DNA of 64,000 bases from an uncultured Acidimicrobiales bacterium (GCA_963723995.1 CAVRSZ010000001.1:1581410-1645409), one strand, 5' to 3'; positions 12,726-40,079 are shown, counted from the first letter of the stretch. Numbers and translations: made by a program. Notes: generated by a model not told the origin, from the letters alone.

Positions 12726-12744
12726 GCCGTATTCGACCTCACCG

Positions 12745-14373: not shown

Positions 14374-14445
14374 CGGGACGTCCCCTTAACCCGACGGACG
14401 ATTACAGCTGCGGGCGGCCGACCACCATGTCACCCCGGGCACCGC

Positions 14446-14473
14446 GATCACCGCGACCGAAGCCGCGGTGATC
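14446..14473 (-). terminator. Perfect 10-bp GC-rich hairpin between TasA-like gene and adhesin A (attenuator/processing site candidate)
   Basis: GATCACCGCG-accgaagc-CGCGGTGATC lies ~35 nt after the TasA-like stop codon. It has no U-tract. A paralogous hairpin sits at 25005..25042 in the same relative position. Confidence 0.4.
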
Positions 14474-14508
14474 ACCGTCTCAGGAGACATCATGGCCGCC
14501 ATGACTGG

Positions 14509-24869: not shown

Positions 24870-25004
24870 TGCGAACCTCCCTATCCCGTCGGGTCGAAGC
24901 CGGGCGTGCGGTAAGGAAACCAGGCCACAGGCGCAACAACTGGAAGCGGGGGTGAAGAGGAACAGCGGCAGGACCAGAGGTATGGCGGTGACGCCACCCG
25001 GGGC

Positions 25005-25042
25005 GCGGCGACCACCGCGGCCGAAGCCGCGGTGGTCGCCGC
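25005..25042 (-). terminator. Perfect 16-bp GC-rich hairpin between TasA-like gene and adhesin B (attenuator/processing site candidate)
   Basis: GCGGCGACCACCGCGG-ccgaag-CCGCGGTGGTCGCCGC lies 33 nt after the TasA-like stop. It has no U-tract. Confidence 0.45.
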
Positions 25043-25075
25043 ATCAGGAGACGTCGTTCCCGCCATCATCGGTGG

Positions 25076-25738
25076 TTACGGGTTGTTGGTGGTCTGCTCG
25101 GCGTCGAAGGTGAAGGTGGCCGTGGACGACAACCCCTGCACGGCATTCGATGCGGTGTTGGGTAGGGTCACGTTGAAGCAGAGGTTCTCGTTGGCGGTGG
25201 CCGCCAACACCCGGTCACCGGCCTGAGCCCCCTGGGTGGGGTCGCCGACGACATTGGCCGTACCGACGCTGCCGAGAATGCCGGCGTAGATCACCGAGCC
25301 GTCAGCCTGCCAGTTGGCGTCGTCGCAGGTGGTGACACCGGACTTGACCGTCAACACCAGCTCACCGGCCAGGGTGTCCTCGGTGGTGGTCGAGGTCATC
25401 GAGTACCGGAATTCGAGGCTGCCACTGTTCGACACGTTGATCGGGGCCGTGGCCTGATCACCGGGGACCATGTCGGTGGCGGTGACCACCGCCGTGGCCG
25501 GGGCCGCCACCAGGTCGATCGAGCCGGTGGAAAAGGCGTTGGCTCCCACCGCCTGCTGGTCGGTGAACAGCGCCAGCGACGACACGGTGAAGATGCCGCC
25601 GGCCAGGGCCAGGACGGCCAGGCTGGCCAGGATCCTGGTACCGGTTCGCTGCGGTCGGCCCGCCTCCTCATCGTGATCGGCACTCGGCAGCTGAGAGCCG
25701 TCGTTGTCAAGTTCGGGGGGTTGTGTTGTTGGTTTCAT
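25076..25738 (-). CDS. TasA/camelysin-like secreted protein with SipW-type signal peptide (paralogue 4)
   Basis: 220 aa, with 24 differences from the 14509..15171 product, half of them in the first 27 residues. It has the same LALFTDQQAVGANAFSTGSIDL motif. AGGAG lies upstream of the ATG. Confidence 0.8.
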   Translation of the reverse strand: MKPTTQPPELDNDGSQLPSADHDEEAGRPQRTGTRILASLAVLALAGGIFTVSSLALFTDQQAVGANAFSTGSIDLVAAPATAVVTATDMVPGDQATAPINVSNSGSLEFRYSMTSTTTEDTLAGELVLTVKSGVTTCDDANWQADGSVIYAGILGSVGTANVVGDPTQGAQAGDRVLAATANENLCFNVTLPNTASNAVQGLSSTATFTFDAEQTTNNP

Positions 25739-25914: not shown

Positions 25915-27744
25915 TCATGGCGCCCCCAGGAAGGTGAGGTCGGCGTCGGGTCCGAACGTCCCGGGCCGGTCCTGCTGGTCGACGGCGGTTGGATTGCCGT
26001 AGTAGAGGAACAATTCGGTGTCCGTGACCGAGGAGATCGCCGGAACCCGAACCCAGGCCCGGACCGAGCCGGTGGCCGGGTTGTAGCTCTCGATGGTGTG
26101 ATCCAGCCGGGTCACACCATCGGCGGCGGTGATCACCAGGTCGTCCCCGTCGGCCTGGGCTCCGGCCTGGACGTCGGTGTCATCAATGGCCAGATAGAGC
26201 ACGAAGTCGGTGACGTCGGCGTCGACCCGGTCGGCGTCGACCACGATCGGTTTGCGGTAGGCCCAGGTTCCGGCATCGAGCCAGGTTCCGACTTCGACCG
26301 GACCGGCCACGGTGAAGGAGGCAGGGGTGTCGTGGTTGGCCACCTCGGCCGCCAGCCACTCCGGCGACCGCACTGCGGTGACCAGCCGAACCTCGTCGAG
26401 CACGCCGTTGAAGGGGTCGGCCCCACCGGGAGCGGCCCCGATGGCCGTGGCGTCGGTGCTGGCAGGCAGGAGCCCGGCGGCCGGCTGCTGGGCCACCTGG
26501 ACACCATCGATGTAGAGCCGGATGACGGTGCCGTTCCAGGTGGCGGCAAGATGATGCCAGGTCCCGGCGGTGACGGTACCGCCCGACACCGTGACCGGAC
26601 CGTCGGCCGTGGTGTTGACGGTGGCCGAGGCCGTGCCCCCGGCGGCCACCGAGAGATCGAACCAGGTGGCCGCCCCTCGCTTGGTCACCACCACCGAATC
26701 GGCGACCACCGAATCGGCGACCACCCAGGCCGACATGGTCAACGAGCCTCGGCCCCCGAAGTCGACCGAGTCGACCGAGGCCCAGTCGTCGGAGCCGTCA
26801 AAGTCAAGGCCGTAGCCGATCCGTCCGGCAACGAGATCACCGGCCGTCATCGACCCCTGGCTCAGGCCGTCGAGATTGTTGATGGTGGAGTCGTCGATCT
26901 GGGGGGCGGTGCCGGCCGGATCTCGGGCCAGGTGCCACACCCCGGCCGCCTGCGGGGTCCACGTGGCTCTCACATCCTGCTGATCGGGAGCGTCGGCCGC
27001 CCCGAACACCAGGTAGACGGTGGTGTCGACCGACGACGACAGCACCGGCACCCGAACCCAGGTCTGCAACTCACCGGTGCCGGCGTCGAACCGTTCGATC
27101 TCGTGATCGAGCGGTGTCGTGCCGTCGGCGGCCACGAAACGGATGTCGGAGCCATCGGGCTGGGCCTGTACGGCGAGCGAACCATCGGTGATCGACACCA
27201 ACAAGGGGTAGTCGGCGAGATCGGCCTCCACCTGGGCGGCAGGCACCGTGATCGGAATACGACGGGTCCACGGGTCGGCCGAATACCAGGCGGTTCCGGC
27301 CGTACGGTCCTCGAAGTCGCCCAGGGTTCCGGAGTCGAAGTTCTCGGTGAGCAGGAACACGTTCTCGGGATCGTCGAGCACCGGAGCCGGGGAAGGATGA
27401 CCGAAGTACAGCCAGTAGCTGCTGATGCCCTCGGCCTCGATACCGGCCATCAGTCCGGAACAGGATGGTGGTGTCGGTCTGACCCCAGCCCGAGCCATCC
27501 TGCAGGACCCGGTCGAGTTCGATCCAGGCGGTCCCGTCCCAGCGCAGCACCCGAACGTCGGAGCCGTCGCCGACAGCGGCCCCGATGGCGACCAGGGCAT
27601 CGTGGTCGAAGGTGACGGGAACCGTGTAGCCGTTGGGAGCGGCTGCGGTGGAGGTCTCCACGTCGATGCGTTGGCGGAACAGATAGTTCGAGTCCCACCA
27701 CCCTGGGCCGGCCCATTCGATGACCTGCCAGGCGAAGGAGGCAT
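25915..27744 (-). CDS. C-terminal continuation: DUF2341 - LamG/ConA-like - DUF2341
   Basis: In frame from ~27455. Contains WTRRIPITVPAAQVEADLADYPLLVSI...DGSDIRFVAADGTTPLDHEIERFD...TWVRVPVLSS...VYLVFG (DUF2341-like), TAGTWHHLAATWNGTVIRLYIDGVQV (LamG), and a second YRKPIVVDADRV...DFVLYLAI...DHTIESYN...AWVRVPAISS...LFLYYGN. Confidence 0.65.
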   Translation of the reverse strand: MPPSPGRSSNGPAQGGGTRTICSANASTWRPPPQPLPTATRFPSPSTTMPWSPSGPLSATAPTFGCCAGTGPPGSNSTGSCRMARAGVRPTPPSCSGLMAGIEAEGISSYWLYFGHPSPAPVLDDPENVFLLTENFDSGTLGDFEDRTAGTAWYSADPWTRRIPITVPAAQVEADLADYPLLVSITDGSLAVQAQPDGSDIRFVAADGTTPLDHEIERFDAGTGELQTWVRVPVLSSSVDTTVYLVFGAADAPDQQDVRATWTPQAAGVWHLARDPAGTAPQIDDSTINNLDGLSQGSMTAGDLVAGRIGYGLDFDGSDDWASVDSVDFGGRGSLTMSAWVVADSVVADSVVVTKRGAATWFDLSVAAGGTASATVNTTADGPVTVSGGTVTAGTWHHLAATWNGTVIRLYIDGVQVAQQPAAGLLPASTDATAIGAAPGGADPFNGVLDEVRLVTAVRSPEWLAAEVANHDTPASFTVAGPVEVGTWLDAGTWAYRKPIVVDADRVDADVTDFVLYLAIDDTDVQAGAQADGDDLVITAADGVTRLDHTIESYNPATGSVRAWVRVPAISSVTDTELFLYYGNPTAVDQQDRPGTFGPDADLTFLGAP

Positions 27745-29548
27745 TCGACGCCATCACCGCCCGCTCGGCCGTGACCGTGGTCCCGTCGGTGATCTCGAAG
27801 GTGGCGGCCGCCTCACCCACCACGTCGTCGGCCACGTGGTCGGTGCGGCCACCGGCCACCGGGCCGGGCACGGCGACGGTGGAGATGGCGGTGGACCTGG
27901 AGGGGTCGAACGGTTCGACGGCGATCGGCTTCGACGACTCGCCGACGGCGAAGTCGACGACGCCATGCCGGACGGTGGTACCGTCCCGCAGATCGACCAC
28001 CTGCACCCGGACATCGAGCGGATCGCCGGCCACCGATCGGGTCACCTCGACGGTGCTGGAATCGGTCAGCCGGGCTCGGACCAGGCGCTCGCCGATATCG
28101 GCTCCCGTCGAGGCCGAGGTGACCGAGGCCAGCAGGAAGGTGTTGCCGGCTCGAACCGGCGAGCTCAGGACCCCGGAGTTGGCCGTGGCTCCCGAACCGA
28201 GGGAGACGTCAATGGTCTGAACCACGGCATCGGCCGGATCGGCGAAGGTCACCACCTGCCAGGCGAACGAGCGATCGGCGCCCAGGGCGGCCCCGGCCGA
28301 CTCGATGGTCAGATCGGACCCGGTGCCGAGATCGGCCCGGACCAGATCGTCGTACTCGAAGTCGCTGGAGGTCGCCGGGGGCGCGGTGCTCACGGTGACG
28401 AAACTGGCGGTGGGGTCCACGGCAGTCAAGGGCACCGTGACCGAGGGGGCGCCGGTGCCGCTGACCACGCCCCGCTGGACCGACACCCCACAGCCGTATT
28501 CGACCACCGACCACGCCACCACCACCGGCGGCGGTGAGCCGTTGTCGGTGTTGCGCACGATCTCGACCGCCGAGCCGTCGCCGGCCAATTGAACCTGGGC
28601 CGTGCCGTCGGCCGGCTCGTTGCCGCTGCTACGGACCGAGGCGAGCACGAACGACGTCGCCGCATCGACTGCAGTGATGGGCACGGTCACCGTTCCGGTC
28701 ACGGCATGAATCGATTCGCCGTCCTGGACCGAGGCCAGTTGCGGATCGAAACAGTCGGCCGAACCGAAGACGTTGTCGGGGACGGCCTCGGTGGTGGTGA
28801 ACAAGGCCCACGCCACACCTAGTCCGGCCATGGTCAACATCGGGGCCACGCCGAGGGTGGCCAAGCGTCGACGCCGCCGGCCACGGCCGGAGCCTCGGAC
28901 ACGACGACCGAGCCGGGAGGCACCGTCATCGACCCTGTTCCTTGGGCTCGTCGAACCGGCAGGCGACGCACCGACCGGGGAGGCCGACGAGCCGGTCCAG
29001 ATCCAGCGCAGAGCCTGGAACGTGAGCACAATGGTGGCCAGTGCCACCAAGGCCAGTGCCGGCCCGGGCTGGAACACGGTCATGACCCAACCCCCGAGGC
29101 GGGGGTAGATCCAGCGACCAACCAGCTCCTGGCCACCGTCGAGCGGGTAGGGGGCGGCGTCAGGGGCCTCGTTGGCGTCGCCCTGGGTAATGGCGAAGCG
29201 AGAACCACCGTTGGCCTCGATCTCGATCACCCGGTGGGTGATGGGGGCCTCCCCGGGCCGCCTCATGACCAGGATGTCCCCGACGGCCACGGCGCCGGCC
29301 TGACGGGGTTCGGCCACGATCAGGCTCCGAGGGGGTGCGGTCTCGCCCATCGATCCGGTGAGGATGACCACCGGACGGTAGCCGGCGATGAGACCACCCA
29401 CGACGGCGCCGGTGCCCAGGATCGTCGCCACCGAGACCGCGACCAGCAGCCACGACATGACTCGGCGGAGCGGGCTCCGCTTGGCTGTCCGGCGCCCGGC
29501 CGGAGCGGTGTTCCCGCCCGATGTCGTTCGCCTTCGACCCGTTCTCAT
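27071..29548 (-). CDS. Signal peptidase I (ER/SipW type) + passenger, N-terminal two thirds
   Basis: A TM segment (SWLLVAVSVATILGTGAVVGGLIAG) is followed by the SPase boxes VVILTGSMGE (Ser), APITHRV (His) and ITQGDANEAPD. A second TM follows, then an internal signal-like RRRRRLATLGVAPMLTMAGLGVAWALFTTTEAVPDNVFGS (28759..28900). After that come repeated ~110-aa beta-rich units (...SFAWQVV... appears twice). Confidence 0.7.
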   Translation of the reverse strand: MRTGRRRTTSGGNTAPAGRRTAKRSPLRRVMSWLLVAVSVATILGTGAVVGGLIAGYRPVVILTGSMGETAPPRSLIVAEPRQAGAVAVGDILVMRRPGEAPITHRVIEIEANGGSRFAITQGDANEAPDAAPYPLDGGQELVGRWIYPRLGGWVMTVFQPGPALALVALATIVLTFQALRWIWTGSSASPVGASPAGSTSPRNRVDDGASRLGRRVRGSGRGRRRRRLATLGVAPMLTMAGLGVAWALFTTTEAVPDNVFGSADCFDPQLASVQDGESIHAVTGTVTVPITAVDAATSFVLASVRSSGNEPADGTAQVQLAGDGSAVEIVRNTDNGSPPPVVVAWSVVEYGCGVSVQRGVVSGTGAPSVTVPLTAVDPTASFVTVSTAPPATSSDFEYDDLVRADLGTGSDLTIESAGAALGADRSFAWQVVTFADPADAVVQTIDVSLGSGATANSGVLSSPVRAGNTFLLASVTSASTGADIGERLVRARLTDSSTVEVTRSVAGDPLDVRVQVVDLRDGTTVRHGVVDFAVGESSKPIAVEPFDPSRSTAISTVAVPGPVAGGRTDHVADDVVGEAAATFEITDGTTVTAERAVMASNASFAWQVIEWAGPGWWDSNYLFRQRIDVETSTAAAPNGYTVPVTFDHDALVAIGAAVGDGSDVRVLRWDGTAWIELDRVLQDGSGWGQTDTTILFRTDGRYRGRGHQQLLAVLRSSFPGSGARRSRERVPAHRELRLRNPGRLRGPYGRNRLVFGRPVDPSYSDHGACRPGGGRSRRLPLVGVDHRWFARRTGPARWLRHPFRGRRRHDTARSRDRTVRRRHR

Positions 29549-30264
29549 TCCTCGACCTCCAGGTTGGAACCGTTGACGACCGCGTCGGACCGAGTCGCGG
29601 CCGGCGAGTGTTGGGCGAAGACGACCAGCTCGATGTCGAGCCGGGCGTCCTGGGTCTCGTTGGGGGCGGACAGCGGCAACCGGGCTCCAAGACACACCAT
29701 GGTCGACTGGTCGGGCTCCAGCCGCAGTCCCGGTGTGTCGGTCCCGGGTCGACCGAGGATGGGAACCTCATCGCCACCGAGGATGAGGTTGGTGATGTAG
29801 ACCTCATCGGCGGCGGCAATGCCGTCGCGGCATCGTTCGGCTCGCCAGACGTCGTACAGCAACCAGTCGGCCAGCGGCGACGAGGCCGGGGAGGCCGACG
29901 CCGTCATCCAGTATCGGATGGGAAGCGTGCCGGTGTTGCCCACGGCCAGTGCCCCGGTGACCGAGTCGCCCGGTGCCATGTTGGTGGCCGAGAACGGCTG
30001 GGGTGCACTCGGCGTGGTGGGACGTCCATTCAGCACGGAGATGCCATCGACATCGACGGCCTCGCTGACGGCCAGCTCCACCGATCCGGCACCGAGCCGG
30101 TTCCCGGTGAACTCCTCCCGGTCGGCAAAGTTGGCGTCCGACGACAAGGCGCATCGGCTGAGCAACCAGGGCAGGGCCACCACCGCCAGCACCACCAGGA
30201 CGGACACCGAGGGTGACATGCGGACACGGCGAAACGATGTCGGTTCGATCTCGGAACCGGTCAT
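29545..30264 (-). CDS. TasA/camelysin-like secreted protein (paralogue 3, divergent)
   Basis: 239 aa. The hydrophobic segment VSVLVVLAVVALPWLL is followed by SSDANFADREEFTGNRLGAGSVELAV and NMAPGDSVTGALAVGNTGTL. There are ATGA overlaps at both ends. Confidence 0.65.
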   Translation of the reverse strand: MTGSEIEPTSFRRVRMSPSVSVLVVLAVVALPWLLSRCALSSDANFADREEFTGNRLGAGSVELAVSEAVDVDGISVLNGRPTTPSAPQPFSATNMAPGDSVTGALAVGNTGTLPIRYWMTASASPASSPLADWLLYDVWRAERCRDGIAAADEVYITNLILGGDEVPILGRPGTDTPGLRLEPDQSTMVCLGARLPLSAPNETQDARLDIELVVFAQHSPAATRSDAVVNGSNLEVEE

Positions 30265-30869
30265 GCCGGCTTCACCTCCCAGATGAACCCGACGCTGGCG
30301 GCGCGCCCCAGCGCCTCCTCTCGATCCTGGAGGGCGAACCGGACCCGGTAGGTGCGGGAGTCACCCTGATTGAAGAATCGCTCCAGCTCGAGCCGGTTCC
30401 GGTCCAGTTCGTCCAGCGTGCCGTCGAACACCAGCCCGGAGGACACAAAGCCGTCGCAGTCACCGAAACCCCCCGATGGCCCCCGCTCGATGAGCACATC
30501 GAGAAATGGGGCGAGATCGCCGGTGATCTCGGCCTTCATGGTCAGATCGACCGGCACGATGGTTCCGCCGTAGGAGATGTTGATGCACTCCTCGTTGGCT
30601 CGACCGGGAGCCATATCGGTCAGATCGAACAGCGAGCTGCCGTTGTCGTCGTCGGACAGTTCGATGGTCCCCGACGTCACCTCCGATGCGGTCGTGGTGC
30701 CCTGAATGTCCAGGGCCTCGCCCGAACGGCTGATGACGAAGGTGGCGATGAGCAGGGCGGAAAGGGCGGCGGCGAACGCCCGGGCCGTGCCCTGATTGAC
30801 CCAGGTTCCCTGGGCCTCATCCTCCACATCGTTGGATCGGAGGTCTTCGAGGGTCAACGGACGAGCCAC
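30261..30869 (-). CDS. TasA/camelysin-like secreted protein (paralogue 2, divergent)
   Basis: 202 aa. The hydrophobic segment FAAALSALLIATFVI is followed by TTTASEVTSGTIELSD and DMAPGRANEECINISYGG. A GTG start lies 7 nt after an AGGAG that spans the upstream stop codon. Confidence 0.6.
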   Translation of the reverse strand: MARPLTLEDLRSNDVEDEAQGTWVNQGTARAFAAALSALLIATFVISRSGEALDIQGTTTASEVTSGTIELSDDDNGSSLFDLTDMAPGRANEECINISYGGTIVPVDLTMKAEITGDLAPFLDVLIERGPSGGFGDCDGFVSSGLVFDGTLDELDRNRLELERFFNQGDSRTYRVRFALQDREEALGRAASVGFIWEVKPA

Positions 30870-30878
30870 GGTGTACTC

Positions 30879-33800
30879 CTAGTGCGGCGAGACGGTGCTG
30901 GCCGCCGCAAGCTTGGCCTCCGGCGCCGGCGGTATCGGAGGACGGGCCGACCGGGCGATGTTTTCCCGAGCCAGGAGATCGGCCAGCTCGGCGGAGGTCA
31001 TGGGCCGATACAGGCCGTAGCCCTGCAGCAGGTCGGCACCGGCAGCCATGACCGCCGTTTTGTGACCTTCGGTCTCGACCCCTTCGGCCACCACCTCGAA
31101 ACCGAGGTTGTGGCCCAGTTCGACGACCGAGTTCAAGATGATGCGGTCCGAGTCGCTGGTGCAGGCCTGATGGACCAGCATTCGATCGAGCTTCAGCTGG
31201 CGAATGGGGAGACGACGGAGGTGACCGAGTGAGGTCCGCCCCTCGCCGAAGTCGTCCAACGACAAACCCACGCCCAGCCTGACCAGTTCGGTCACCACCT
31301 GTTCCAGGTCGTCGCCCGATGCCACGATGCGCTCACTGAGCTCCACCACCACCTGGCTTGGCCGAACCCCGGTCAGCAGCAGGGCATCGCCCAGGTTGGG
31401 AATCAGCGTCGGCGACGACAGTTCGGCCGGTGAGGCGTTGATGGCCAGCGTGAACGGTCGCTCACCGGAGATCGGCCAACGGCTCATTTCACCCAGCGCG
31501 GTGTGGACGATCCAGCCGTTCAGTTCACTGACCAGATCGGCCTGCTCGGCCATCTGCAGCGCCATGCCCGGTCCGAGCGCACCCAACTCGGGGTGATTCC
31601 ACCGGAGGAGAACCTCGGCACCCATGATGCGGTGACCGACGGTCGAGACCAGGGGTTGGAACACCAGGTCGAGGCCGTCGTGTTCGAGAGCCCGCTTGAA
31701 CTCGCCGACCAGGCGGCCCCGGCGGGGTTCGGCCAGGTCGAGATCGGCGTGATAATAGGAAACCCGGCGGGACGACGACGACTGCTTGGCTGCGTACATG
31801 GCGGCATCGGCCCGTCGCAACCACTCGCTGGAATCGACGCCGTCCTCGTGGAAGGCGATGCCGATACTGGCACCGACCACCACCGTGTCCTGATCGAGTT
31901 CGATCGGTTCGGCCAGCGCGGCGTGAATGGCGCTGGCCACGTTCGAGGCATCACCGCCCCGGCACCGTGGCAACAGCACGGTGAACTCGTCCCCGCCGAG
32001 GCGGGCCACCAGACCAAAGGAATCGGCGACGGTCTGCAACCGCGTGGCCACCACCTTGAGCAGTTCGTCGCCGGCATCGTGACCAAGGGTGTCGTTGACC
32101 GGCTTGAACCCGTTGAGATCGAGGAACAGCACGGCCATCATGTCATCCGGACCCCGTTCGGCCATCGCTTCGGGCTCCAACTCCCGGCTGAGCTCCCGAA
32201 GGAAGTAGGCCCGGTTGGGCAGGCGGGTCAGGGCGTCATGCAGGGCCTGGTGTTCGAGTTCGGAATGCAGGTCCTTCAGCTCGTTGACCAGATCCCGGTT
32301 CTGGAGGGCAACGGTGGCCTGGCCGCACAGCAGTCGAAGGGCCTCGACCGGTCCGGCGTCGAAGGGACGGCCCACGAAGTTGGCACCTCGGAGCACGATC
32401 AGGGTCTCGTCGGTGGAAAGGGTGATGCGAACCAGGGCGTCCAGGCCGGCCTCGAACAGACCCTCGACCTCCTGTCCGTCGCCGTCGCTGCCGTCGACCA
32501 ACACCTCGGGGTGGGGCAGATCGACCATGCGCAGCCCGCTGGCGGGCTGCCCGGGCTGGGGCAGATGCCGGGCATACAGTTCCTCGGATACTTCGATTCG
32601 GGTCCAGCCGCCGGTCGGGGTACGGGCCCATGCATCAACGACGTCGAACCCGAGGCTTGCCGCCGATTTGGTCAGGGTCTCGAACAGGGCCGTTCCGATC
32701 CTGGTCACTTCGAATCCCAGCTCGGCCACGTTCTCGAGCAGGCGTCCCCGGGCCACGGCATCAACGGTGGCCCGACGCTGCAGGATGACATCGCCCAGAA
32801 GCTGCTCGGCCAGGAAGGCACCGGGAATGACCACCAGCAACAGCACACTCATCTGATCCAGGAGCTGCTCCAGTTCACCGATCAGCTGGTTCGAGGGGCT
32901 GTCGATACTGTTGAGAATCCAGACCCGTCCAAGAATGGTGAGCACCGCCATCAGCATCCAGTGGACGAGGGCTCCGGCCAGGCGGTATCGGACCGCGGCC
33001 TCCACGATGGGAAGTGCGGTCAGCACCCAACCGATGCCGGAACCGCCGGTGGCGGTGGTCAACAGCACCACCAGCAGGGTGTCGGCCACCAACTGAAACA
33101 GACCGACCCATTGGCTCTCCCCTACCTGATCGAGCCGACCCGAGACCACATTGGTTCCGGCCAACCACAGCAGCGAGAGCGCCAGAAGCTGGGCCGGCCC
33201 GATGTTGACGGCCTCGATGACGAAGCGGCTGCCATCGATGGCGTACTGACCGGTGATCATGACCGCGATCAGGATGCGGACCCGTCGAACAGCCTGATCG
33301 GCCAGAGTCGAGGTGCGCTCGTTCAGCAGGGCCTTGATCCGCCGCTTGCGACTACTGAGATCCCGAACGGCGATGCCGATGGCGGCCAACGACAGCACGG
33401 CGAAGGCGCCAAGTGACACCAGGTCGGCCCGGCCCAACCAGACCGCGGGAAGCCCGATAAGGGGGATGACGAGTCGGGCCGCACCAATGACCGAGGCGGC
33501 GGGAACAAGGTCGGTATCGGGTGTGGGATTGGCGTCGCCCTTGGTGACATAGGCCTCTTTCTCCTCCAACACCTCGAAGACCCGGTGCGTGATGATGTCA
33601 CCGTCACGGTCGAAGGTGATCACCGATCGCTGGCCCAGGAGCTCATCCGGTCGATCCTCGATCATCACCACATCGCCGGGGCGCAGCACCGGGGCCATCG
33701 AGCCGGAGACGATCACCACCGGATTCCAGCCGGCGCCCAGGGTCACGATGACCACCCATAGCCCGAGCATGCCGGCCAGGTAGAGGTAGATCCACGAGAT

Positions 33801-33899
33801 CAGGGACACCACGGGAACGAACCGTCCATGACCGATGAGGGCTGGAATACCCGTCCTCACCACGGCGGGTCGGGCCGGGCTGAAGCGTTCCACGTTCAC
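30879..33899 (-). CDS. Fusion protein: SipW/archaeal-type signal peptidase I - polytopic membrane domain - GAF-like - GGDEF - EAL
   Basis: 1006 codons, with a GTGA overlap with the upstream gene. SPase boxes: VVIVSGSMAPVLRPGDVV, GDIITHRV, TKGDANPTPD. About 6-7 hydrophobic helices span aa ~140-365. The GGDEF domain reads RLGGDEFTVLL (nt 31983..32000). The EAL domain carries EVLLRW, AINASP, ELSE, DDFGEG, KLDR, EGVETE and QGYG. Confidence 0.8.
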   Translation of the reverse strand: MNVERFSPARPAVVRTGIPALIGHGRFVPVVSLISWIYLYLAGMLGLWVVIVTLGAGWNPVVIVSGSMAPVLRPGDVVMIEDRPDELLGQRSVITFDRDGDIITHRVFEVLEEKEAYVTKGDANPTPDTDLVPAASVIGAARLVIPLIGLPAVWLGRADLVSLGAFAVLSLAAIGIAVRDLSSRKRRIKALLNERTSTLADQAVRRVRILIAVMITGQYAIDGSRFVIEAVNIGPAQLLALSLLWLAGTNVVSGRLDQVGESQWVGLFQLVADTLLVVLLTTATGGSGIGWVLTALPIVEAAVRYRLAGALVHWMLMAVLTILGRVWILNSIDSPSNQLIGELEQLLDQMSVLLLVVIPGAFLAEQLLGDVILQRRATVDAVARGRLLENVAELGFEVTRIGTALFETLTKSAASLGFDVVDAWARTPTGGWTRIEVSEELYARHLPQPGQPASGLRMVDLPHPEVLVDGSDGDGQEVEGLFEAGLDALVRITLSTDETLIVLRGANFVGRPFDAGPVEALRLLCGQATVALQNRDLVNELKDLHSELEHQALHDALTRLPNRAYFLRELSRELEPEAMAERGPDDMMAVLFLDLNGFKPVNDTLGHDAGDELLKVVATRLQTVADSFGLVARLGGDEFTVLLPRCRGGDASNVASAIHAALAEPIELDQDTVVVGASIGIAFHEDGVDSSEWLRRADAAMYAAKQSSSSRRVSYYHADLDLAEPRRGRLVGEFKRALEHDGLDLVFQPLVSTVGHRIMGAEVLLRWNHPELGALGPGMALQMAEQADLVSELNGWIVHTALGEMSRWPISGERPFTLAINASPAELSSPTLIPNLGDALLLTGVRPSQVVVELSERIVASGDDLEQVVTELVRLGVGLSLDDFGEGRTSLGHLRRLPIRQLKLDRMLVHQACTSDSDRIILNSVVELGHNLGFEVVAEGVETEGHKTAVMAAGADLLQGYGLYRPMTSAELADLLARENIARSARPPIPPAPEAKLAAASTVSPH

Positions 33900-34465
33900 G
33901 GCCTGGCCTCCACGATCAGTGCGAAGTCGGTGTAGCGACCCTCGGCATCGGGGTCATCGAGCAACTCGGCTCGGGCCGCCAGGGTGACTCGGCTTCCCTG
34001 CTCGATTCCCGTTCCCAGAACCAGCCCGTCGGCGTAGCTGCCGTGGGTCTGCCACATCTCGGTCAAGGTGCCGTCCAACGCCGGGTCGGGCGGTGGCCCC
34101 TCGGTCGGACACGGTTCGTCGCTGGTCCACACCTGGAAGCGGATGTAGCGGTCCAGCTCGGTTCCCCCCAATCGACGACCGTGGAGGCGAAGATCGGCTT
34201 CGATCGAACCCCGATAGATCACCTCGACACAGGCGTCGGTGAACGAGCCCGGGTACAGCTCGTCCTCGTTGAACAGCAACTCCACCGCATCCCCGACCTG
34301 GTCGAGTTCGATCGACCCGGCACTGAAGAGTCCCGCGGTCGAGGTCGAGGCCGAGACCTCGGCCTGACTGGTGCGGATGCCGTTGATCACAACGACGCCG
34401 GCGGCCAGCACAACAATGGCGGCCGCCAGCCGACGCCCGGCGGCGAACCAACGTTCCGCCGTCAT
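33896..34465 (-). CDS. TasA/camelysin-like secreted protein (paralogue 1, divergent)
   Basis: 189 aa. The hydrophobic segment LAAAIVVLAAGVVVI is followed by AEVSASTSTAGLFSAGSIELDQ and ELYPGSFTDACVEV. There is an ATGA overlap with the upstream gene. Confidence 0.6.
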   Translation of the reverse strand: MTAERWFAAGRRLAAAIVVLAAGVVVINGIRTSQAEVSASTSTAGLFSAGSIELDQVGDAVELLFNEDELYPGSFTDACVEVIYRGSIEADLRLHGRRLGGTELDRYIRFQVWTSDEPCPTEGPPPDPALDGTLTEMWQTHGSYADGLVLGTGIEQGSRVTLAARAELLDDPDAEGRYTDFALIVEARP

Positions 34466-37400
34466 TGGTCGCCGTCCTGTTCCGCACCGACCGGCGTCTC
34501 CTCGCCCGCTTCGCCGCCACCCGGCGTGGGCCCCTCGACCTCGTTGCCCTCGACCTCGTTCCCGTCGACCTCGCCACCCCCGACCTCGTTCCCGTCGACC
34601 TCGCCACCCCCGACCTCGCTATCCCCGACCTCGCTGCCCTCGACCTCGCTACCCTCGACCTCGTTCCCGTCGACCTCGTTGCCCTCGACCGAGTCGGGGC
34701 TCTCGGTACCCCCCTGGGGGATGCTGGAACCATCTGCCGGGGTCGTGACATCGGCCGCCGTCCCCGGGGTCGCGGCATCACCGACAGCGGCCACGGTCAC
34801 GCCGCCGGCGCCGATGGTGACGAGCTGCCCTGCGCCGACCTCGATCCGCTCGATGGTGAATGCGTCACCGGCGCCGGGAACGGGATCGTCGGGACTTCCG
34901 GCGCCGACCCCGGGGTCGGTCGAACCGGCCGCCGGGGTGATGCGAACGGTGTAGCGACCGGGAACCAGGATCTCGCCGTCAACCGCCGCCCGCCACCGGC
35001 CACCGGGGCCGACCAGCTCGACGGTACCGGCATCGAGACCGGCATCGGTTTCGATTCGCAGCCGGCTCAGAACCAGGGTGGCGTCGTCGGGTATGGGTGC
35101 GACGTGGCGATCGGGCCCCAGGGAGACCTCGATCAGCGCCTCGCCCGACCATGCGGCCACCGTGTCGGGGCGCAGGAATCCGCCGCTACCGTCGCCCTCC
35201 AGCGGTTCCGACCAGGCGTCGGTGTAGACCCGCAGTCGAAGATCGTCCTCGGCCACAAACGGGCCGGCCGATCCGGCGCCGTCGCCCACGTCGTCGTCGA
35301 GAGAGGGAACCAGCACGGTCAGGATGGGAGGGATGGTGGCCGAACCCTGCTCACCGGGCTGAGCCGACGCCGGTCCGGCCACAGGGCCCAGGAACAGGGC
35401 GAGGACGGCGGCCACCGTGGCCACCGCCGCCAGCAGTCTGAGCAAGTTGAGGTCGCTGCGGGAGAAGCCGGTTGACAGATCCTCGGGGTGGGAGTGGGCT
35501 ATCGCCGATTCACCAGCCTGCCACCCGCCGTCCGATCTCGAGTTGTGGAACGATCCCCTTCCGGCCGCATCGTGACCGACCTCGAACGCGTCGTGGGCAC
35601 CGAGGGCACAGTACTCACCGAGGGCACAGTACTCGGTGAGCGCGATCCGGTCGTCGTCGCTCAGCTCCTCGAACTCCATTCCCACCCGCACCAATCCCGA
35701 CTCGTGCCGGGTGGCGGCCCGGACCCGGGCCGTCGTGGCGACGCCGTGCTCGGTGCCGTCGGCCCTCGGTACCGAGAAGCGGATGGAAACGGTCTCGTCC
35801 AGAGCGGGGGCCGATTCGAGCACGGCACCGACGCCGACCGGGGTGACATCCAGGGTGGTTCCCCGCCGGCCGGCCAACGTGATCCCGGCCTCGAGCGGAA
35901 CACGGGGAGCGCGGCGGCGCTGGCGGTGCCATACCAGCGCTCCGAGCACGTCGACCAGGATGTAGGTCGTCGCCAGGGCCACCAGGATGAGCACGGTGCT
36001 GTGCCGACGGGTCATGGCCGGCAACAGCGTGGGGTAGACGGTGTTGAAGGCTCGGGCGGCGAAGGCCACCTCGAAGAAGCTGAAAACCACGACCAGGACC
36101 TGGAGCTGACCCAGTGCGTCGCGACGACCCTGGCTTCGAACACGGTCCCGCCGATCAGGCAGGGGCGACACGGTCGGGGCGAGGGCGGCCAGGTCGGCCC
36201 CCAAGGTTCGCCAGCCGTGACGGGTCCAGTCCCCGAACGACATGATCCCACCCGACAGCAGGCGCCGGGCCGTCATGTTGGCGGCGGCGAAACCAACCAT
36301 GGCCGTCACAACCGTGGTCAACTCGCCCTCAAATGGCAGCCGACCCAGAAGCAGAGCCGCGGCCAGCACCGAAGTGACGGCCAGCTGGCGTATGCCGTAG
36401 GTCAGCGACACCCCGGCGGCCATGGCCGCCCACCGGGCGGTGCGGGTCACACCACGGGTGGTGAAGGCCGCCCCCAGGCTGATCAGGGCCGCCGCGCTGC
36501 GGTCACGGCGAGCCACCAGGTAGGGCTGGAGCGTATCGGGTGCCAGGTCCCGAATGAGGGGCCGCGAATCGTGGCCGGTGGACCAGCCATCCCGATGGAG
36601 GGCGACGGCCCACTCCGGCACCATCCAGTAGGAGGGGGCCTGGTCGACCAGGTCCCTCAGCGCAGCGCGTCGAACCAGCGAAGCCGGGCCCCGCCATGGG
36701 GCAACTCCCCGACTGGCCAGGGCCGGACCGATCAGCTGACGTTCCAGGGCTTCCTCGTCACCACCCCGTTTGAGATGGAACAGCGAGTTGGGATTGAGCA
36801 GACCGACGGCCAGCTGCCGGACGGCAGCACGGTCATCGATCGGCGAGTCGACCACGGCGTCGAACAGTCGGGGCATGGGAACCTGACCCGCCTGCAGCCA
36901 CAACAACCACGCCCCGTCGCCGATGTCGGCCATCGAGGGCAGCGGGCTGACTGCGCTCGAATGGTCGATCCCCAATTCGAGCCGAAGTGCAGTCGTTGAA
37001 TCGAAACGATCGATGACGGTCTGGACATCGGGATCGACCCGGCCGGTCAGCACGGTCGTCGTGCGCTGCCAGCCGGTGACGGCGAGACCGACCATGGTGC
37101 GCTCCAGATCGGTCGCCGTCGACTCGGGACCGACCGTGATCACGACGTCGATCTCATCCCGGTCGATGCGGGAACCGGCGTCGACCGGTCGGCGTTTGGG
37201 CACGACCTGGAATCGAAACAGCAGGAGCTGAACCCACGACCAGATCTCGGCCCACAGCACCGGCAACGACAGGGCCAGGATCCAACCCCGTCCAATGGTG
37301 GTGGTCCGCCAGGCCAGATAACCCAGACCGGCGACGAGCACGACGGCCACGACCAGACGCGTCAGAAGGGTCACATCGACCGGTGCGTCGGGGTCGACCT

Positions 37401-37473
37401 GACGGTGATCGGCGGCCGGGGCCACAAGGCCCGAACGACCGGTGGTCGGTTGATCGGAAGGGGATGCGTGCAC
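34462..37473 (-). CDS. BcsA-like (GT2 fold, catalytic motifs degenerate) membrane protein with PilZ domain and extracellular acidic-repeat C-terminus
   Basis: 1003 codons; GTG start with GAGG 5 nt upstream. The arrangement of TM helices and IDVVITVGPES ... LWLQAGQVP (where DxD is expected) ... ALHRDGWST ... DLAPDTLQPYLVARRDRS (where QxxRW is expected) is collinear with cellulose synthase BcsA as I remember it. PilZ motifs: RRRAPR (RxxxR) and DVTPVG (D-x-S/T-x-x-G), at nt ~35637..35925. A late TM/signal-like segment (LLRLLAAVATVAAVLALFLGPVAGPASA) is followed by ~300 aa ending in EV[EDG]G[NSG] pentapeptide repeats. Confidence 0.65.
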   Translation of the reverse strand: MHASPSDQPTTGRSGLVAPAADHRQVDPDAPVDVTLLTRLVVAVVLVAGLGYLAWRTTTIGRGWILALSLPVLWAEIWSWVQLLLFRFQVVPKRRPVDAGSRIDRDEIDVVITVGPESTATDLERTMVGLAVTGWQRTTTVLTGRVDPDVQTVIDRFDSTTALRLELGIDHSSAVSPLPSMADIGDGAWLLWLQAGQVPMPRLFDAVVDSPIDDRAAVRQLAVGLLNPNSLFHLKRGGDEEALERQLIGPALASRGVAPWRGPASLVRRAALRDLVDQAPSYWMVPEWAVALHRDGWSTGHDSRPLIRDLAPDTLQPYLVARRDRSAAALISLGAAFTTRGVTRTARWAAMAAGVSLTYGIRQLAVTSVLAAALLLGRLPFEGELTTVVTAMVGFAAANMTARRLLSGGIMSFGDWTRHGWRTLGADLAALAPTVSPLPDRRDRVRSQGRRDALGQLQVLVVVFSFFEVAFAARAFNTVYPTLLPAMTRRHSTVLILVALATTYILVDVLGALVWHRQRRRAPRVPLEAGITLAGRRGTTLDVTPVGVGAVLESAPALDETVSIRFSVPRADGTEHGVATTARVRAATRHESGLVRVGMEFEELSDDDRIALTEYCALGEYCALGAHDAFEVGHDAAGRGSFHNSRSDGGWQAGESAIAHSHPEDLSTGFSRSDLNLLRLLAAVATVAAVLALFLGPVAGPASAQPGEQGSATIPPILTVLVPSLDDDVGDGAGSAGPFVAEDDLRLRVYTDAWSEPLEGDGSGGFLRPDTVAAWSGEALIEVSLGPDRHVAPIPDDATLVLSRLRIETDAGLDAGTVELVGPGGRWRAAVDGEILVPGRYTVRITPAAGSTDPGVGAGSPDDPVPGAGDAFTIERIEVGAGQLVTIGAGGVTVAAVGDAATPGTAADVTTPADGSSIPQGGTESPDSVEGNEVDGNEVEGSEVEGSEVGDSEVGGGEVDGNEVGGGEVDGNEVEGNEVEGPTPGGGEAGEETPVGAEQDGDQ
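34531..34690 (-). repeat. About 10.5 tandem copies of a degenerate 15-bp unit (cctcgacctcgttgc-like) encoding EV[EDG]G[NSG] pentapeptides
   Basis: Read directly from the sequence: ...ctcgacctcgttgccctcgacctcgttcccgtcgacctcgccacccccgacctcgttcccgtcgacctcgccacccccgacctcgctatccccgac... Confidence 0.85.
35598..35633 (-). repeat. Perfect 18-bp tandem duplication (caccgagggcacagtact x2), in frame (EYCALG-EYCALG)
   Basis: Read directly from the sequence. It lies immediately C-terminal to the PilZ domain. Confidence 0.95.
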
Positions 37474-37721: not shown

Positions 37722-37794
37722 AGTGGACAACCAGTGGGTTTCTCCACAAAATCTGGGGACATCCAAGAAAGTCTGCGGACAACCCTGGGGATAT
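37722..37794. promoter_or_regulatory. Cluster of five DnaA-box-like 9-mers
   Basis: The five 9-mers are: 37722..37730 rc TTGTCCACT; 37740..37748 TTCTCCACA; 37754..37762 rc ATGTCCCCA; 37774..37782 rc TTGTCCGCA; 37786..37794 rc ATATCCCCA. They match the actinobacterial consensus TTGTCCACA at 7-8 of 9 positions. A TTGACG hexamer follows at 37806..37811. Confidence 0.3.
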
Positions 37795-37989
37795 CGAAAA
37801 AGCCCTTGACGCCCTCTCGGCGGCATGTCACGATGCCTATCACTCAGGTGAACACCAGCCGATCGACGGGGAACGGCGACAGCGAATCGGGTCAAACCGA
37901 GACGAGGTCGACGGGCTCCCGAAGGCGGAAAGGCTCATCTGATAGAGGTGGTTTCCCCTCGACGACCGACGGTCAAGGTTTCGGACTCC

Positions 37990-38385
37990 GGTCCGGAATC
38001 CGATCACGGGCTTCGGCCCGGGATCCGGTGTCAAGCTTCGGCTCGAGATCGGATCGGCGGTTGTCACGGCGCCCCCGCAGGTCTTCGGATCGCTGGGACG
38101 GCGACAGGGAGCGATGCTTCGGCCCAGCGCACTGCTACGGCAAATTGGTCAACCGGTGGCTCCACCGGACGATCACGAACTGTAGCGACGCCCACAAGGC
38201 GGCGTTGGTGAAACAGCGTTCACATATGAGAACTGCCCGCCGGGCTCACGCACGACGGGCAGTGATAAACACTATCGGTACTGACAGTACACCTGAACAG
38301 GTCGATAGTGGTGGATCCACCTCGAACTTGATGGCGCCTCCGGTTCGTCGGCTTCGGCCGACATCTCCGGAGGCGTCAACTTTTT
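37990..38385 (+). ncRNA. Candidate structured RNA (unknown family); boundaries uncertain
   Basis: CTTCGG occurs five times, each time capping a possible stem: 38007..38020 CGGGC-UUCG-GCCCG; 38034..38043; 38080..38091; 38111..38130; 38347..38362 GUCGGC-UUCG-GCCGAC. The region ends in a terminator-like hairpin with a U5 run. It has no protein-like ORF. Confidence 0.2.
38335..38385 (+). terminator. Terminator-like compound hairpin followed by TTTTT
   Basis: The 9-bp outer stem CGCCTCCGG/CCGGAGGCG (38335..38343 / 38367..38375) encloses the 6-bp GTCGGC-ttcg-GCCGAC. A T5 run lies at 38381..38385, 5 nt after the stem. Confidence 0.4.
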
Positions 38386-38820
38386 CCCGAAGCCACCGGG
38401 TATCGGTGAAGGAGATCGTGTCGGGCCACGAGCTAGGGGTGGCCCGGCACGCTCCCCGCGTCACCGGGTCGGGGCGTCCGAACCAACCATGCGACGGCCC
38501 GCAACGGCATCTCGTCCTGCGGCAGATTCGTGCCACAAAGATCTCGATGTGGATCCCCAACACCCTGCCTTGTCGAACCCCGCAGAGTCCGCTGGTTGCT
38601 CGATCATTCAACATTGCGGCACGTCTCAGGAACGTTCGCCCGCAGGCCGAACTTCAGGCCGGCCTCGGCCGGCGGCAGGTGCTCGAGGACTTCGGGTTCA
38701 GGTCCGTGGGCTGGCGATCAGCGAGTCACGCCCACATGAGGACCGTTCCGGCCCAGTACACGCCCCACACTCCATCGGATGTGAACTAATAGATTCACCT
38801 GAAATAGTTGCTAGGAATGC

Positions 38821-38849
38821 TTGTTTATCGAACATGTGTTTGCTATAGT
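38821..38849 (+). promoter_or_regulatory. Sigma-70-type promoter giving a leaderless mRNA for the HNH gene
   Basis: TTGTTT (38821..38826), a 17-nt spacer, then TATAGT (38844..38849). The ATG at 38856 begins 7 nt after the -10 element. The local sequence is AT-rich. Confidence 0.5.
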
Positions 38850-38855
38850 GAAGGC

Positions 38856-40079
38856 ATGACCACCGGCGAGTTGGCACCACAACCACACAGCGACGATCTG
38901 ACGCCGTTGGAGACCGCTCTCGATGCCATGGTGGCAACCGACCCCGACTGCCTTCCTGTGGCCGAGCTGCTGGACCGGGCCTGTCGCCTGCAACGGTTGA
39001 CGGCCCGGCTCGACGCTCTACGGGCCACCGTGTTGGCCGCCGCCGATTCGGCGTCCGAAGCGCCCGGCGTGCTGAGAGAGCTCGGGTTTCGCAACGCCTC
39101 ACAAGTAGTGGCCGCCGAAACCGGGGCACCAGCCCGGGAGATCCACGCCACCGCCCGCACCGGGCGATGGCTCGATGAGTTCCCGGTCTTCGCTCAGGCG
39201 GCCGCCGAGGGGGTGTTGACCCTGCGACACCTGCGGGAATTGAAGAGCTTGGACACAGCCAACCGGCGAGACGCCCTGGTGGCGTCCCAGGACGAGTTGG
39301 TGGCTGCGGCTCGGGAACACGACTTTGTGGAGTTCACCAACCGGGTCACCGTGTGGTTGATCAACCACACCACGTCCGACGAGGTGCAAGAACAGGTCAA
39401 GAAGACCTCGTGCACCTGGAACACCAACACCGACGGGTCCATCGACGGCCGGTTCCACCTCGACCCGCTCTCAGCGGCCGCAGTCGGAACCGCACTGGGT
39501 GATGAGATGCAGCGCCTGTTCCGCCAACAATCCGAAGGGCCCGGCAACGCCGAAACACCGAATCGGCGGCGAGGCCAAGCCCTCGTTAGCCTGATCGTCG
39601 GTGGGGCCGAAACCCCTGGGTCGGCCACCACCACCCCGTTGGTGAACCTGGTCATCGGACAGAAGGTCTTGGAGAACCTCCTGGAGCGGTTCCTCGATCC
39701 TGACACAGCGACAATCGACGTCGATCGGGATGATCCCGACTACCGGTGTGAACGCATCGACGGGACACCAATCCACCCTGATCTTGCGTTTGTAGCCACC
39801 GCGGTGGCCGAGTTCGAACGGATCGTGCTCAACGAGAAGTCCAGAGTGATCGACATGTCGGTCAAAGCCCGGGGGTTCCCCGACTGGATGAAACGAGCGT
39901 TACTGATCGAAGCCAGAGGCAGATGTCGAACCCGGGGCTGTGATGCGCCCTACCACTGGTTGCAAGTTGATCATGTCGAACCCCACTCGAAGGGCGGGCC
40001 CACCAGCCTGGCCAACGGACAGATCCTCTGCGATCCAGACAACAAGTGGAAGCGCGATCTCGTACAGGCCGTGGCCTGA
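38856..40079 (+). CDS. DUF222 domain HNH endonuclease (REP13E12-type)
   Basis: The helical N-terminal region (LDRACRLQRLTARLDALRATVLAAAD...) is typical of DUF222. The C-terminal HNH reads CRTRGCDAPYHWLQVDHVEPHSKGGPTSLANGQILCDPDNKWK. I chose the start at MTTGELAP because of the leaderless promoter; the ORF track starts at 38808. Confidence 0.8.
   Translation: MTTGELAPQPHSDDLTPLETALDAMVATDPDCLPVAELLDRACRLQRLTARLDALRATVLAAADSASEAPGVLRELGFRNASQVVAAETGAPAREIHATARTGRWLDEFPVFAQAAAEGVLTLRHLRELKSLDTANRRDALVASQDELVAAAREHDFVEFTNRVTVWLINHTTSDEVQEQVKKTSCTWNTNTDGSIDGRFHLDPLSAAAVGTALGDEMQRLFRQQSEGPGNAETPNRRRGQALVSLIVGGAETPGSATTTPLVNLVIGQKVLENLLERFLDPDTATIDVDRDDPDYRCERIDGTPIHPDLAFVATAVAEFERIVLNEKSRVIDMSVKARGFPDWMKRALLIEARGRCRTRGCDAPYHWLQVDHVEPHSKGGPTSLANGQILCDPDNKWKRDLVQAVA

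Follow-up and report, generated by a model that had tools for sequence, protein, structure and literature searches.

The BcsA-like gene and its parts

We analysed a stretch of 64,000 nucleotides (nt) from an uncultured Acidimicrobiales bacterium (GCA_963723995.1, CAVRSZ010000001.1:1581410-1645409), hereafter referred to as the window, with positions counted from its first letter. At 34462-37473 on the minus strand lies a gene whose product resembles BcsA, the cellulose synthase gated by cyclic di-GMP (c-di-GMP), and which heads an operon of TasA-like proteins and SipW-type signal peptidases. All together, the data presented here make it highly probable that this protein is a catalytically dead derivative of BcsA, with a PilZ domain of working appearance, conserved as a family.

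The open reading frame (ORF) begins with GTG and encodes 1003 amino acids (aa) in a frame that is intact throughout; its G+C content at third codon positions (GC3) is 0.81, the same as that of the other genes of this window of 67% GC. The parts of the gene, all on the minus strand, are the following.

34462..37473 (-): whole gene, encoding a putative BcsA-like pseudo-glycosyltransferase, a PilZ domain, an internal signal-peptide-like helix and an ectodomain (ORF, translation, coding GC3, alignment A1)
37198..37374 (-): two N-terminal transmembrane (TM) helices, aa 34-92 (hydropathy; AlphaFold2 helices 36-59 and 63-90)
36454..37197 (-): domain of the glycosyltransferase (GT) GT-A/GT2 fold without catalytic residues, aa 93-340 (BcsA profile match; Foldseek match to BcsA)
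36886..36894 (-): position of the DxD metal-binding motif (BcsA D246-A-D248), here Q194-A195-G196 (profile alignment)
36619..36627 (-): position of the TED motif with the catalytic base D343 (BcsA T341-E-D343), here W283-M284-V285
36499..36513 (-): position of the QxxRW motif (BcsA Q379-R-G-R-W383), here A321-R-R-D-R325
35926..36453 (-): four TM helices, the interface-helix motif GDWTRHGWRTLGAD (aa 414-427) and a degenerate former gating loop (aa 433-448) (AlphaFold2 helices; motif invariance)
35614..35925 (-): PilZ domain, aa 517-620, with RRxxxR and DxSxxG-type motifs intact (Pfam PF07238; BcsA alignment)
35362..35457 (-): hydrophobic helix after PilZ, signal-peptide-like (h-region, then G-P-V-A-G-P-A-S-A / Q) (hydropathy, A1)
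34774..35361 (-): extracytoplasmic beta-sandwich ectodomain, aa 705-900 (separate AlphaFold2 model)
34465..34773 (-): low-complexity acidic tail (15-nt tandem repeat of 10.6 copies)

The protein has the fold and the order of parts of BcsA

A single-sequence search of PDB sequences with the 1003-aa protein returned nothing useful, and a family profile was needed. In a Pfam scan of the protein PilZ was the sole domain recognised, while the NCBIfam model CelA (TIGR03030) matched aa 263-613 weakly (E 1.6e-9, 36.4 bits against a cutoff of 699.1). Alignment A1 was built from ten sequences, namely the query and nine homologues of 30-85% identity found by a word-indexed search, and its profile matched R. 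sphaeroides BcsA (4HG6, 4P00, 5EJ1) at E of about 2e-23, E. coli BcsA at about 1e-20 and the PilZ protein YpfA at 3e-6. The profile alignment sets the N-terminal helices (aa 34-92) on E. coli BcsA from about residue 201, just before its GT domain.

In an AlphaFold2 model of the full protein, built on A1, the GT-like domain (aa 80-300) and PilZ (aa 530-620) have predicted local distance difference test scores (pLDDT) of about 80-89, whereas aa 433-523, the linker and the tail are modelled poorly. When this model was compared with the PDB by Foldseek, the eight best matches were all BcsA chains (E 1e-20 to 2e-18, 630-690 aligned columns), and hyaluronan synthase and plant CesA ranked after them. 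Because both the profile matches and the Foldseek matches point to BcsA, the predicted GT2 fold and the order of parts shared with BcsA are real, and a chance resemblance is ruled out. The collinearity with BcsA that a first-pass annotation of the window had proposed is thus supported by the CelA, profile and structure matches alike, and the superposition that it had suggested as a check returned a GT2 fold with BcsA as the best match.

Specifically, the protein shares with BcsA (R. sphaeroides 4HG6/4P00; E. coli 9FMV) a GT-A/GT2 domain set between TM helices, the interface helices, and four TM helices after the GT domain, followed directly by a PilZ domain with RRxxxR and DxSxxG motifs; the acidic residue at the position of BcsA E371 is also kept. 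It differs from BcsA in having only two N-terminal helices, in carrying an added C-terminal signal-peptide-like helix and ectodomain, and in the replacement of the functional motifs DDG, HAKAGN, DxD, FFCGS, TED, QxxRW and FxVTxK, described below.

The donor-binding and catalytic motifs are replaced

Residue correspondences, given in 4HG6 numbering, were taken from profile alignments, and the columns were checked on the 150 best hits of an exhaustive profile search aligned to the same hidden Markov model. Q194-A195-G196-Q197 stands at the DxD position (D246-A-D248-H249 of BcsA) and A321-R-R-D-R325 at the QxxRW position, where the first-pass annotation had read LQAGQ and ARRDRS, respectively; both readings hold, and so does the match of ALHRDGWST to an LHRxGW-type sequence, which aligns to LHRDGW. 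The same annotation had read TED as VPE, two residues too far downstream of the true position W283-M284-V285, although the loss stands since no Asp is present there. Its first Asp box, IDVVITV, proved to be the first beta-strand (VDIFVPTY in E. coli BcsA) and no catalytic Asp box.

The replacements extend to the remaining elements. FFCGS of BcsA corresponds to P259-W-R-G-P, and the UDP-binding DDG (ILDDGG in E. coli) to V-L-T143-G-R-V, while in the alignment to E. coli BcsA HAKAGN has no counterpart in the query. The FxVTxK gating loop is lost, the corresponding stretch being PLPDRRDR, which is disordered in the model and poorly conserved. The invariant motif GDWTRHGW was at first read as a retained gating loop, a reading that was dropped when the alignment to canonical relatives placed it in the preceding interface helix.

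These canonical relatives (about 630-700 aa; for example P0061, P0083 and P0091) carry VDVFVxTY, LLDDGR, LDADHVP, FWCGS, (A/T)EDFHT and QRxRWA in the very columns where the query lacks them, so that the catalytic residues are not merely offset in the query; they also carry an F(K/R)VTPK gating loop about 25 residues past the conserved interface-helix motif. In conclusion, every donor-binding and catalytic motif has been replaced and the protein is most likely unable to bind a UDP-sugar or to transfer sugar, in agreement with the earlier view that glycosyl transfer is unlikely. It is not to be classed as a cellulose synthase: its architecture is that of BcsA, yet at every position by which catalytic membership is judged another residue is found.

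Loss of the motifs characterises a large family

When 1.84 billion cluster representatives were searched exhaustively with the profile, 2333 of them matched at E<=1e-3 and 313 at E<=1e-30, which corrected the impression of a tiny family that the word-indexed search, with only nine relatives, had given. Motifs were counted on 139 listed members with full coverage, and PilZ motifs on 142 members. DxD, TED and QxxRW are lacking together in 114/139, whereas 12/139 are canonical and 13/139 intermediate; the PilZ motifs are intact in 136/142. Thus homologues also lack the motifs, a point that the first-pass annotation had left to be checked, and by these counts the motif loss is a trait of the family and not a sign of decay.

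The forms predicted to be dead are of two types, 'AGQVP', to which the query belongs, and 'DAGDVP', and in a rough neighbour-joining tree they form a single radiation to which the canonical proteins do not belong. Where catalysis is lost, an exported C-terminal part tends to be gained: at least 150 residues follow PilZ in 95/114 of the members without the three motifs, compared to 0/12 canonical and 3/13 intermediate ones. The longer members carry arrays of CarboxypepD_reg, SdrD_B, SpaA or macroglobulin-type (MG) beta-sandwich domains, as are typical of surface proteins, and some end in a C-terminal membrane anchor. In databases the members are named 'hypothetical protein', 'PilZ domain-containing protein', 'carboxypeptidase regulatory-like domain-containing protein' or 'glycosyltransferase family 2 protein'. 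Literature searches on PilZ together with pseudo- or inactive glycosyltransferases, and on PilZ together with Acidimicrobiia, retrieved no report of a BcsA-PilZ family that is conserved and catalytically dead.

PilZ and the surfaces around it are retained

The Pfam PilZ model (PF07238) matches aa 518-617, that is nt 35623-35922, with 31.1 bits against a cutoff of 22.5, and thereby confirms the domain noticed beforehand at about 35637..35925 with its motifs RRRAPR and DVTPVG. R519-R520-x-x-x-R524 aligns to R579, R580 and R584 of BcsA and is invariant in A1. D542-x-T-x-x-G547 matches the DxSxxG motif of BcsA, with Thr for Ser at 544 and with D542 and G547 invariant in A1. With both motifs intact, the domain is predicted to be competent for c-di-GMP. 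In BcsA without bound c-di-GMP, E371 forms a salt bridge with R580; at the position of E371 the family has D313, conserved in at least 90%, so that an acidic residue is kept.

Conservation, expressed as mean pairwise identity, differs strongly between regions. It is 0.32 in the N-terminal, nucleotide-binding half of the GT-like domain, which is the least conserved folded part of the protein, and 0.27 in the former gating loop, as opposed to 0.53 in the membrane-proximal C-terminal half of the GT-like domain, 0.52 in PilZ and 0.78 in the interface helix. To judge from this pattern, selection is relaxed at the former sites of donor binding and catalysis, and has been maintained at the junction of PilZ with the membrane helices and the GT-like domain.

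At the end of PilZ an in-frame 18-nt tandem duplication (EYCALG-EYCALG, aa 614-625; 35599-35634, minus strand) is present in this copy of the gene only, and not in P0001-P0009.

A signal-peptide-like helix and an ectodomain follow PilZ

Behind PilZ, all three features that the first-pass annotation had described, namely a signal-like TM segment, some 300 extracellular residues and acidic pentapeptide repeats, were recovered. The hydrophobic helix spans aa 677-695, and the segment reads ...ALFLGPVAGPASA|QPGE, with cleavage at the bar predicted from the motif. Most extended members of the family have the same layout of a basic n-region, an h-region, a c-region containing Gly/Pro and an AxA-type end. 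The NCBIfam models of SipW-dependent signal peptides did not match this helix; p220, the TasA/camelysin protein of the operon described below, was the only one to match.

The ectodomain (aa 705-900), when modelled alone, was all-beta and two-lobed with a pLDDT of 76.5. Foldseek returned nothing at E<=0.001 for it, and the best matches were generic tandem Ig domains at E>=0.013. Two candidate identities were rejected: a BcsB-like domain (carbohydrate-binding/flavodoxin-like), since Foldseek of the model gave no BcsB match, and a TasA-like or TapA-like domain, as the hhalign probability was <=1% for each of the four TasA-like paralogue families.

The tail encodes acidic pentapeptides in its 15-nt repeat (34532-34690, 10.6 copies), which is not conserved among the A1 homologues. 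P0001 and P0002, relatives of 83% identity, differ from the query gene in the copy number of this repeat, and more distant homologues have Ser/Thr/Pro-rich tails in place of the pentapeptides.

The operon encodes TasA-like proteins and SipW-type signal peptidases

The BcsA-like gene is the first of a tightly packed minus-strand operon, four junctions of which, by ORF coordinates, are start/stop overlaps of the ATGA type. In one of these the start of p189 overlaps the stop of the BcsA-like gene. The genes that follow it are listed below.

33896..34465 (-): TasA-like p189 (hhalign to the Peptidase_M73 paralogue family, 91.7% probability, and to p202, 99%; synteny)
30879..33899 (-): SipW-type signal peptidase, multi-pass membrane region, GGDEF and EAL (TIGR02228, GGDEF and EAL matches)
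30261..30869 (-): TasA-like p202 (hhalign)
29545..30264 (-): TasA-like p239 (hhalign to the p220 family, 99.9%)
25915..29548 (-): second SipW, TasA-type signal peptide and DUF2341-LamG-DUF2341 (frameshifted near 27449)
25076..25738 (-): TasA/camelysin protein p220 with SipW-dependent signal peptide (Pfam Peptidase_M73, TIGR04088)

p220 matches PF12389 (Peptidase_M73) at E 9e-10 and TIGR04088, on an N-terminal fragment, with 20.8 bits against a cutoff of 19. By hhalign, p189, p202 and p239 align to p220 with probabilities of 92-99.9%, and the weakest pair, p202-p239, stands at 66%. The SipW-GGDEF-EAL protein matches TIGR02228 with 76.5 bits, GGDEF at E 6e-42 and EAL at E 5e-58. Its SipW domain occupies aa 31-157 with the boxes SGSM, THRV and GDAN, and the motifs GGDEF, EVL, DDFGEG, EGVE and QGY read intact in the translation, so that both turnover domains are apparently active. 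This fusion suggests a direct link of signal-peptide processing to second-messenger turnover. The second SipW (TIGR02228, 51.9 bits against a cutoff of 51.85) is joined in frame to a TasA-type signal peptide (..GVAWALF|TTTEA), that is, a peptidase together with what appears to be its own substrate. Its gene is intact in the closest relative, L033 (1181 aa); here a 1-nt insertion near 27449, which is either an assembly error or a real mutation, shifts the frame. Beyond p220 lie giant surface proteins with DUF7948, cadherin-like, FG-GAP, LamG and beta-helix domains. None of the scanned large ORFs with GC3 support in the window matched a glycosyltransferase domain, and no BcsB gene was found among the scanned ORFs at the locus.

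TasA/camelysin subunits with a SipW-dependent signal peptide and an archaeal-type signal peptidase, by which a TapA-SipW-TasA operon is recognised, are both present, as in the B. subtilis tapA-sipW-tasA operon and among archaeal TasA-like bundling pili (PMC9245690, PMC9674648). The locus has in common with tapA-sipW-tasA the TasA/camelysin subunits with SipW-type signal peptides and the dedicated SipW peptidases; it differs in its four TasA-like paralogues, in the BcsA-like PilZ protein that leads it, and in that both SipW copies are fusions, to GGDEF-EAL and to DUF2341-LamG. As its predicted products indicate, the operon is of the TapA-SipW-TasA kind, with the PilZ protein and the SipW fusions as extra components. 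In our literature searches we found neither a PilZ/BcsA-like component nor a SipW fused to GGDEF-EAL described for TasA-type operons.

In a locus scan covering one genome per species, 29 loci carry the motifs of the clade, and all are in metagenome-assembled genomes (MAGs) of Acidimicrobiia, except for one contig binned as Chthoniobacterales. The MAGs with the operon come from environmental metagenomes. The identical order, BcsA-like PilZ gene, p189, SipW-GGDEF-EAL, p202, p239, SipW2::DUF2341-LamG, p220 and giant adhesin, was found in 16 distinct Acidimicrobiia loci including L033, with translationally coupled genes and with the GGDEF-EAL enzyme encoded by the second gene after the BcsA-like one. 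The co-occurrence with TasA-like genes, which the first-pass annotation had put forward as a check, is thus strict in this clade.

A candidate c-di-GMP receptor for the surface fibre and adhesin system

We consider it somewhat more probable than its contrary that the protein is a pseudo-glycosyltransferase c-di-GMP receptor, which ties the local c-di-GMP to the surface fibre and adhesin system; what we infer here is that it binds c-di-GMP, in which direction the signal passes and what the output is. According to this proposal, a PilZ-regulated processive synthase of the BcsA type would have lost UDP-sugar binding and sugar transfer, while it kept the membrane-proximal half of the GT domain, the interface helix, the TM bundle and a PilZ domain competent for c-di-GMP, and gained behind PilZ a signal-peptide-like helix and an extracytoplasmic beta-sandwich domain. 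The co-encoded SipW-GGDEF-EAL protein would make and degrade c-di-GMP locally; the ligand would bind PilZ, which would rearrange against the GT-like domain, and the change of state may pass through the membrane or through protein contacts to the ectodomain of the protein itself and to its partners, namely the four TasA-like subunits, the two SipW peptidases and the giant adhesins. Assembly, anchoring or processing of fibres and adhesins would then track the second messenger. An output through its own extracytoplasmic domain or through protein contacts is more likely than one through a conduit.

Degenerate enzymes acting as c-di-GMP receptors are represented by LapD (with LapG and LapA), PelD and FimX. 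LapD-type receptors resemble the proposed one in that a dead enzyme scaffold serves as a membrane receptor for c-di-GMP, is linked to a protease and to large adhesins, and works by inside-out signalling, which is the logic proposed here. They differ in that the scaffold of the query is a glycosyltransferase and its ligand site a PilZ domain rather than a degenerate EAL/GGDEF, with no homology between the two, and in that the protease here is a SipW-type signal peptidase, whereas LapG is a cysteine protease. A wider form of the proposal, which we put forward only tentatively, is that in an actinobacterial radiation a cellulose synthase gated by c-di-GMP became an 'inside-out' switch across the membrane, in which the dead BcsA module would read cytoplasmic c-di-GMP. 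That the signal peptidase-GGDEF-EAL protein supplies the c-di-GMP, and that the processing, release or anchoring of the exported domain of the switch itself, of TasA-like fibres and of adhesins is controlled, is likewise a speculative part of it, as is the idea that the system is a Gram-positive-type functional counterpart of LapD-LapG made from entirely different parts.

Several observations weigh against the receptor proposal. The replacement motifs AGQVPMP (A195-G196-Q197-V-P-M-P, invariant in A1, G196 included), GGDEE and PWxGP are themselves invariant, which indicates that the old active-site region is still under selection and may bind some ligand or have another activity. TM7-8 and the linker are of low confidence in the model, the ectodomain has no informative structural match, and the members of the family come from MAGs in all cases. 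As for the genomic context, L001 keeps the BcsA-like gene in a short version of the operon, without p189 to p239 (the SipW-GGDEF-EAL gene and three TasA paralogues). In addition, six informative loci hold distant paralogues (29-32% identity) with unrelated neighbours and long beta-sandwich extensions, and two genomes carry both an operon-type gene and a distant paralogue. In other Acidimicrobiia loci, the paralogues L023 9230-14296, L032 9869-14686 and L030 9827-14540 combine the dead module with at least five tandem beta-sandwich repeats of about 85 aa, a Pro/Thr-rich linker and a C-terminal membrane anchor, without TasA or SipW neighbours. Because of the short L001 version and of these paralogues with unrelated neighbours, the link to TasA fibres is specific to the clade and not intrinsic to the module.

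Alternatively, the protein could be a precursor, in which the ectodomain is cut from the BcsA-like module by signal peptidase at the AxA-type site (PASA/Q); the fusion would mainly ensure co-production and co-localisation, the ectodomain, whether released or still associated, would be the functional surface part, and c-di-GMP may control its export or release. AcsAB of Komagataeibacter, in which BcsA and BcsB are reportedly made as one polypeptide and then processed, has the same succession of synthase-PilZ, signal-peptide-like helix and extracytoplasmic domain on one polypeptide, although the ectodomain of the query shows no BcsB similarity, its synthase part is predicted to be dead and processing is only predicted. 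The helix after PilZ has the full signal-peptide layout in most extended members, including paralogues without SipW nearby, and the operon holds two signal peptidases. The second SipW is also fused to a protein with an internal TasA-type signal peptide, so that fusions of a peptidase or membrane module, a signal peptide and a secreted part recur at the locus. Nevertheless, no SipW-dependent signal peptide model matched the segment, cleavage is predicted from the motif and the ectodomain is not BcsB-like. We regard the precursor as unlikely, and, being compatible with the receptor proposal, it would add to that proposal rather than replace it.

Quite improbable is a conduit, that is, reuse of the old glucan channel as a c-di-GMP-gated path of export, for instance for the neighbouring proteins. 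The core of six TM helices and the interface helix is retained and conserved, and the gene heads an operon of exported proteins. However, the TasA-like neighbours carry N-terminal signal peptides of their own and are encoded next to two dedicated SipW peptidases, the loop through which PilZ is coupled to the active site has been lost, confidence in the model is low at TM7-8, and paralogues occur without TasA or SipW neighbours. The BcsA channel, moreover, admits a single glucan chain and is not known to admit a folded or unfolded protein. Therefore, when the first-pass annotation suggested a c-di-GMP receptor reusing the channel architecture, its receptor on a BcsA scaffold, with PilZ motifs and no catalysis, is what we keep, while its gating of the export of neighbours finds no support here. 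It is even less to be expected that the protein is an active glycosyltransferase which makes a biofilm-matrix exopolysaccharide with non-canonical residues, such as the invariant GGDEE or E287. Points in its favour are the retained GT-A fold, the invariance of several acidic residues in A1 (D239, E240), and the weak matches that Pfam GT2 models still give to some distant members. Against this, E240 corresponds to a Glu present in BcsA too, hence it is no new catalytic residue, E287 is conserved among the closest relatives only, and the donor-binding half is the least conserved folded part; residual activity is unlikely because six separate elements for UDP-sugar, metal, catalysis and acceptor positioning have been replaced. 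Finally, a decaying pseudogene or an artefact of annotation or assembly might be suspected from at least one frameshift in a neighbouring gene of the window, but 1003 codons in an intact frame with coding-type GC3, 99 residues that stay invariant in the ten-sequence alignment although identity falls to about 30%, the recurrence of these replacements in hundreds of cluster representatives and the conserved synteny make it almost inconceivable, and the conservation data rule it out.

If the receptor proposal is true, the scaffold of a processive synthase can serve anew as a module for signalling or anchoring alone. Degenerate GGDEF/EAL domains are well-known c-di-GMP receptors, and to our knowledge PilZ-bearing synthases (BcsA, Alg44) have so far been treated as enzymes or co-polymerases. 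TasA-type fibres have been linked so far to transcriptional control in Bacillus; in Acidimicrobiia such protein fibres would be under direct c-di-GMP control. The automatic name 'glycosyltransferase family 2 protein' would also be misleading for proteins of this kind. These possibilities, which derive throughout from sequence analysis of uncultured organisms, should be of interest to researchers on c-di-GMP and on the biofilm matrix.

Further features of the locus

Directly upstream of the operon, at 37734-40079 on the plus strand and in a stretch of lower GC content (0.63), are a 351-aa ORF without family match and a 423-aa HNH endonuclease ORF. The pair is probably an inserted mobile or defence element, because it is absent from the otherwise syntenic site of L033. 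In addition, p220 and the DUF7948 adhesin gene that follows it occur twice in the window, at 9768-15171 and 21870-25738 (both on the minus strand); the two p220 copies, of which the second lies at 14512-15171, share 89% identity. L033 (2768 aa) and L001 (7333 aa) encode the giant adhesin in one ORF each, and in this window it is represented by several shorter ORFs across 1612-24869.

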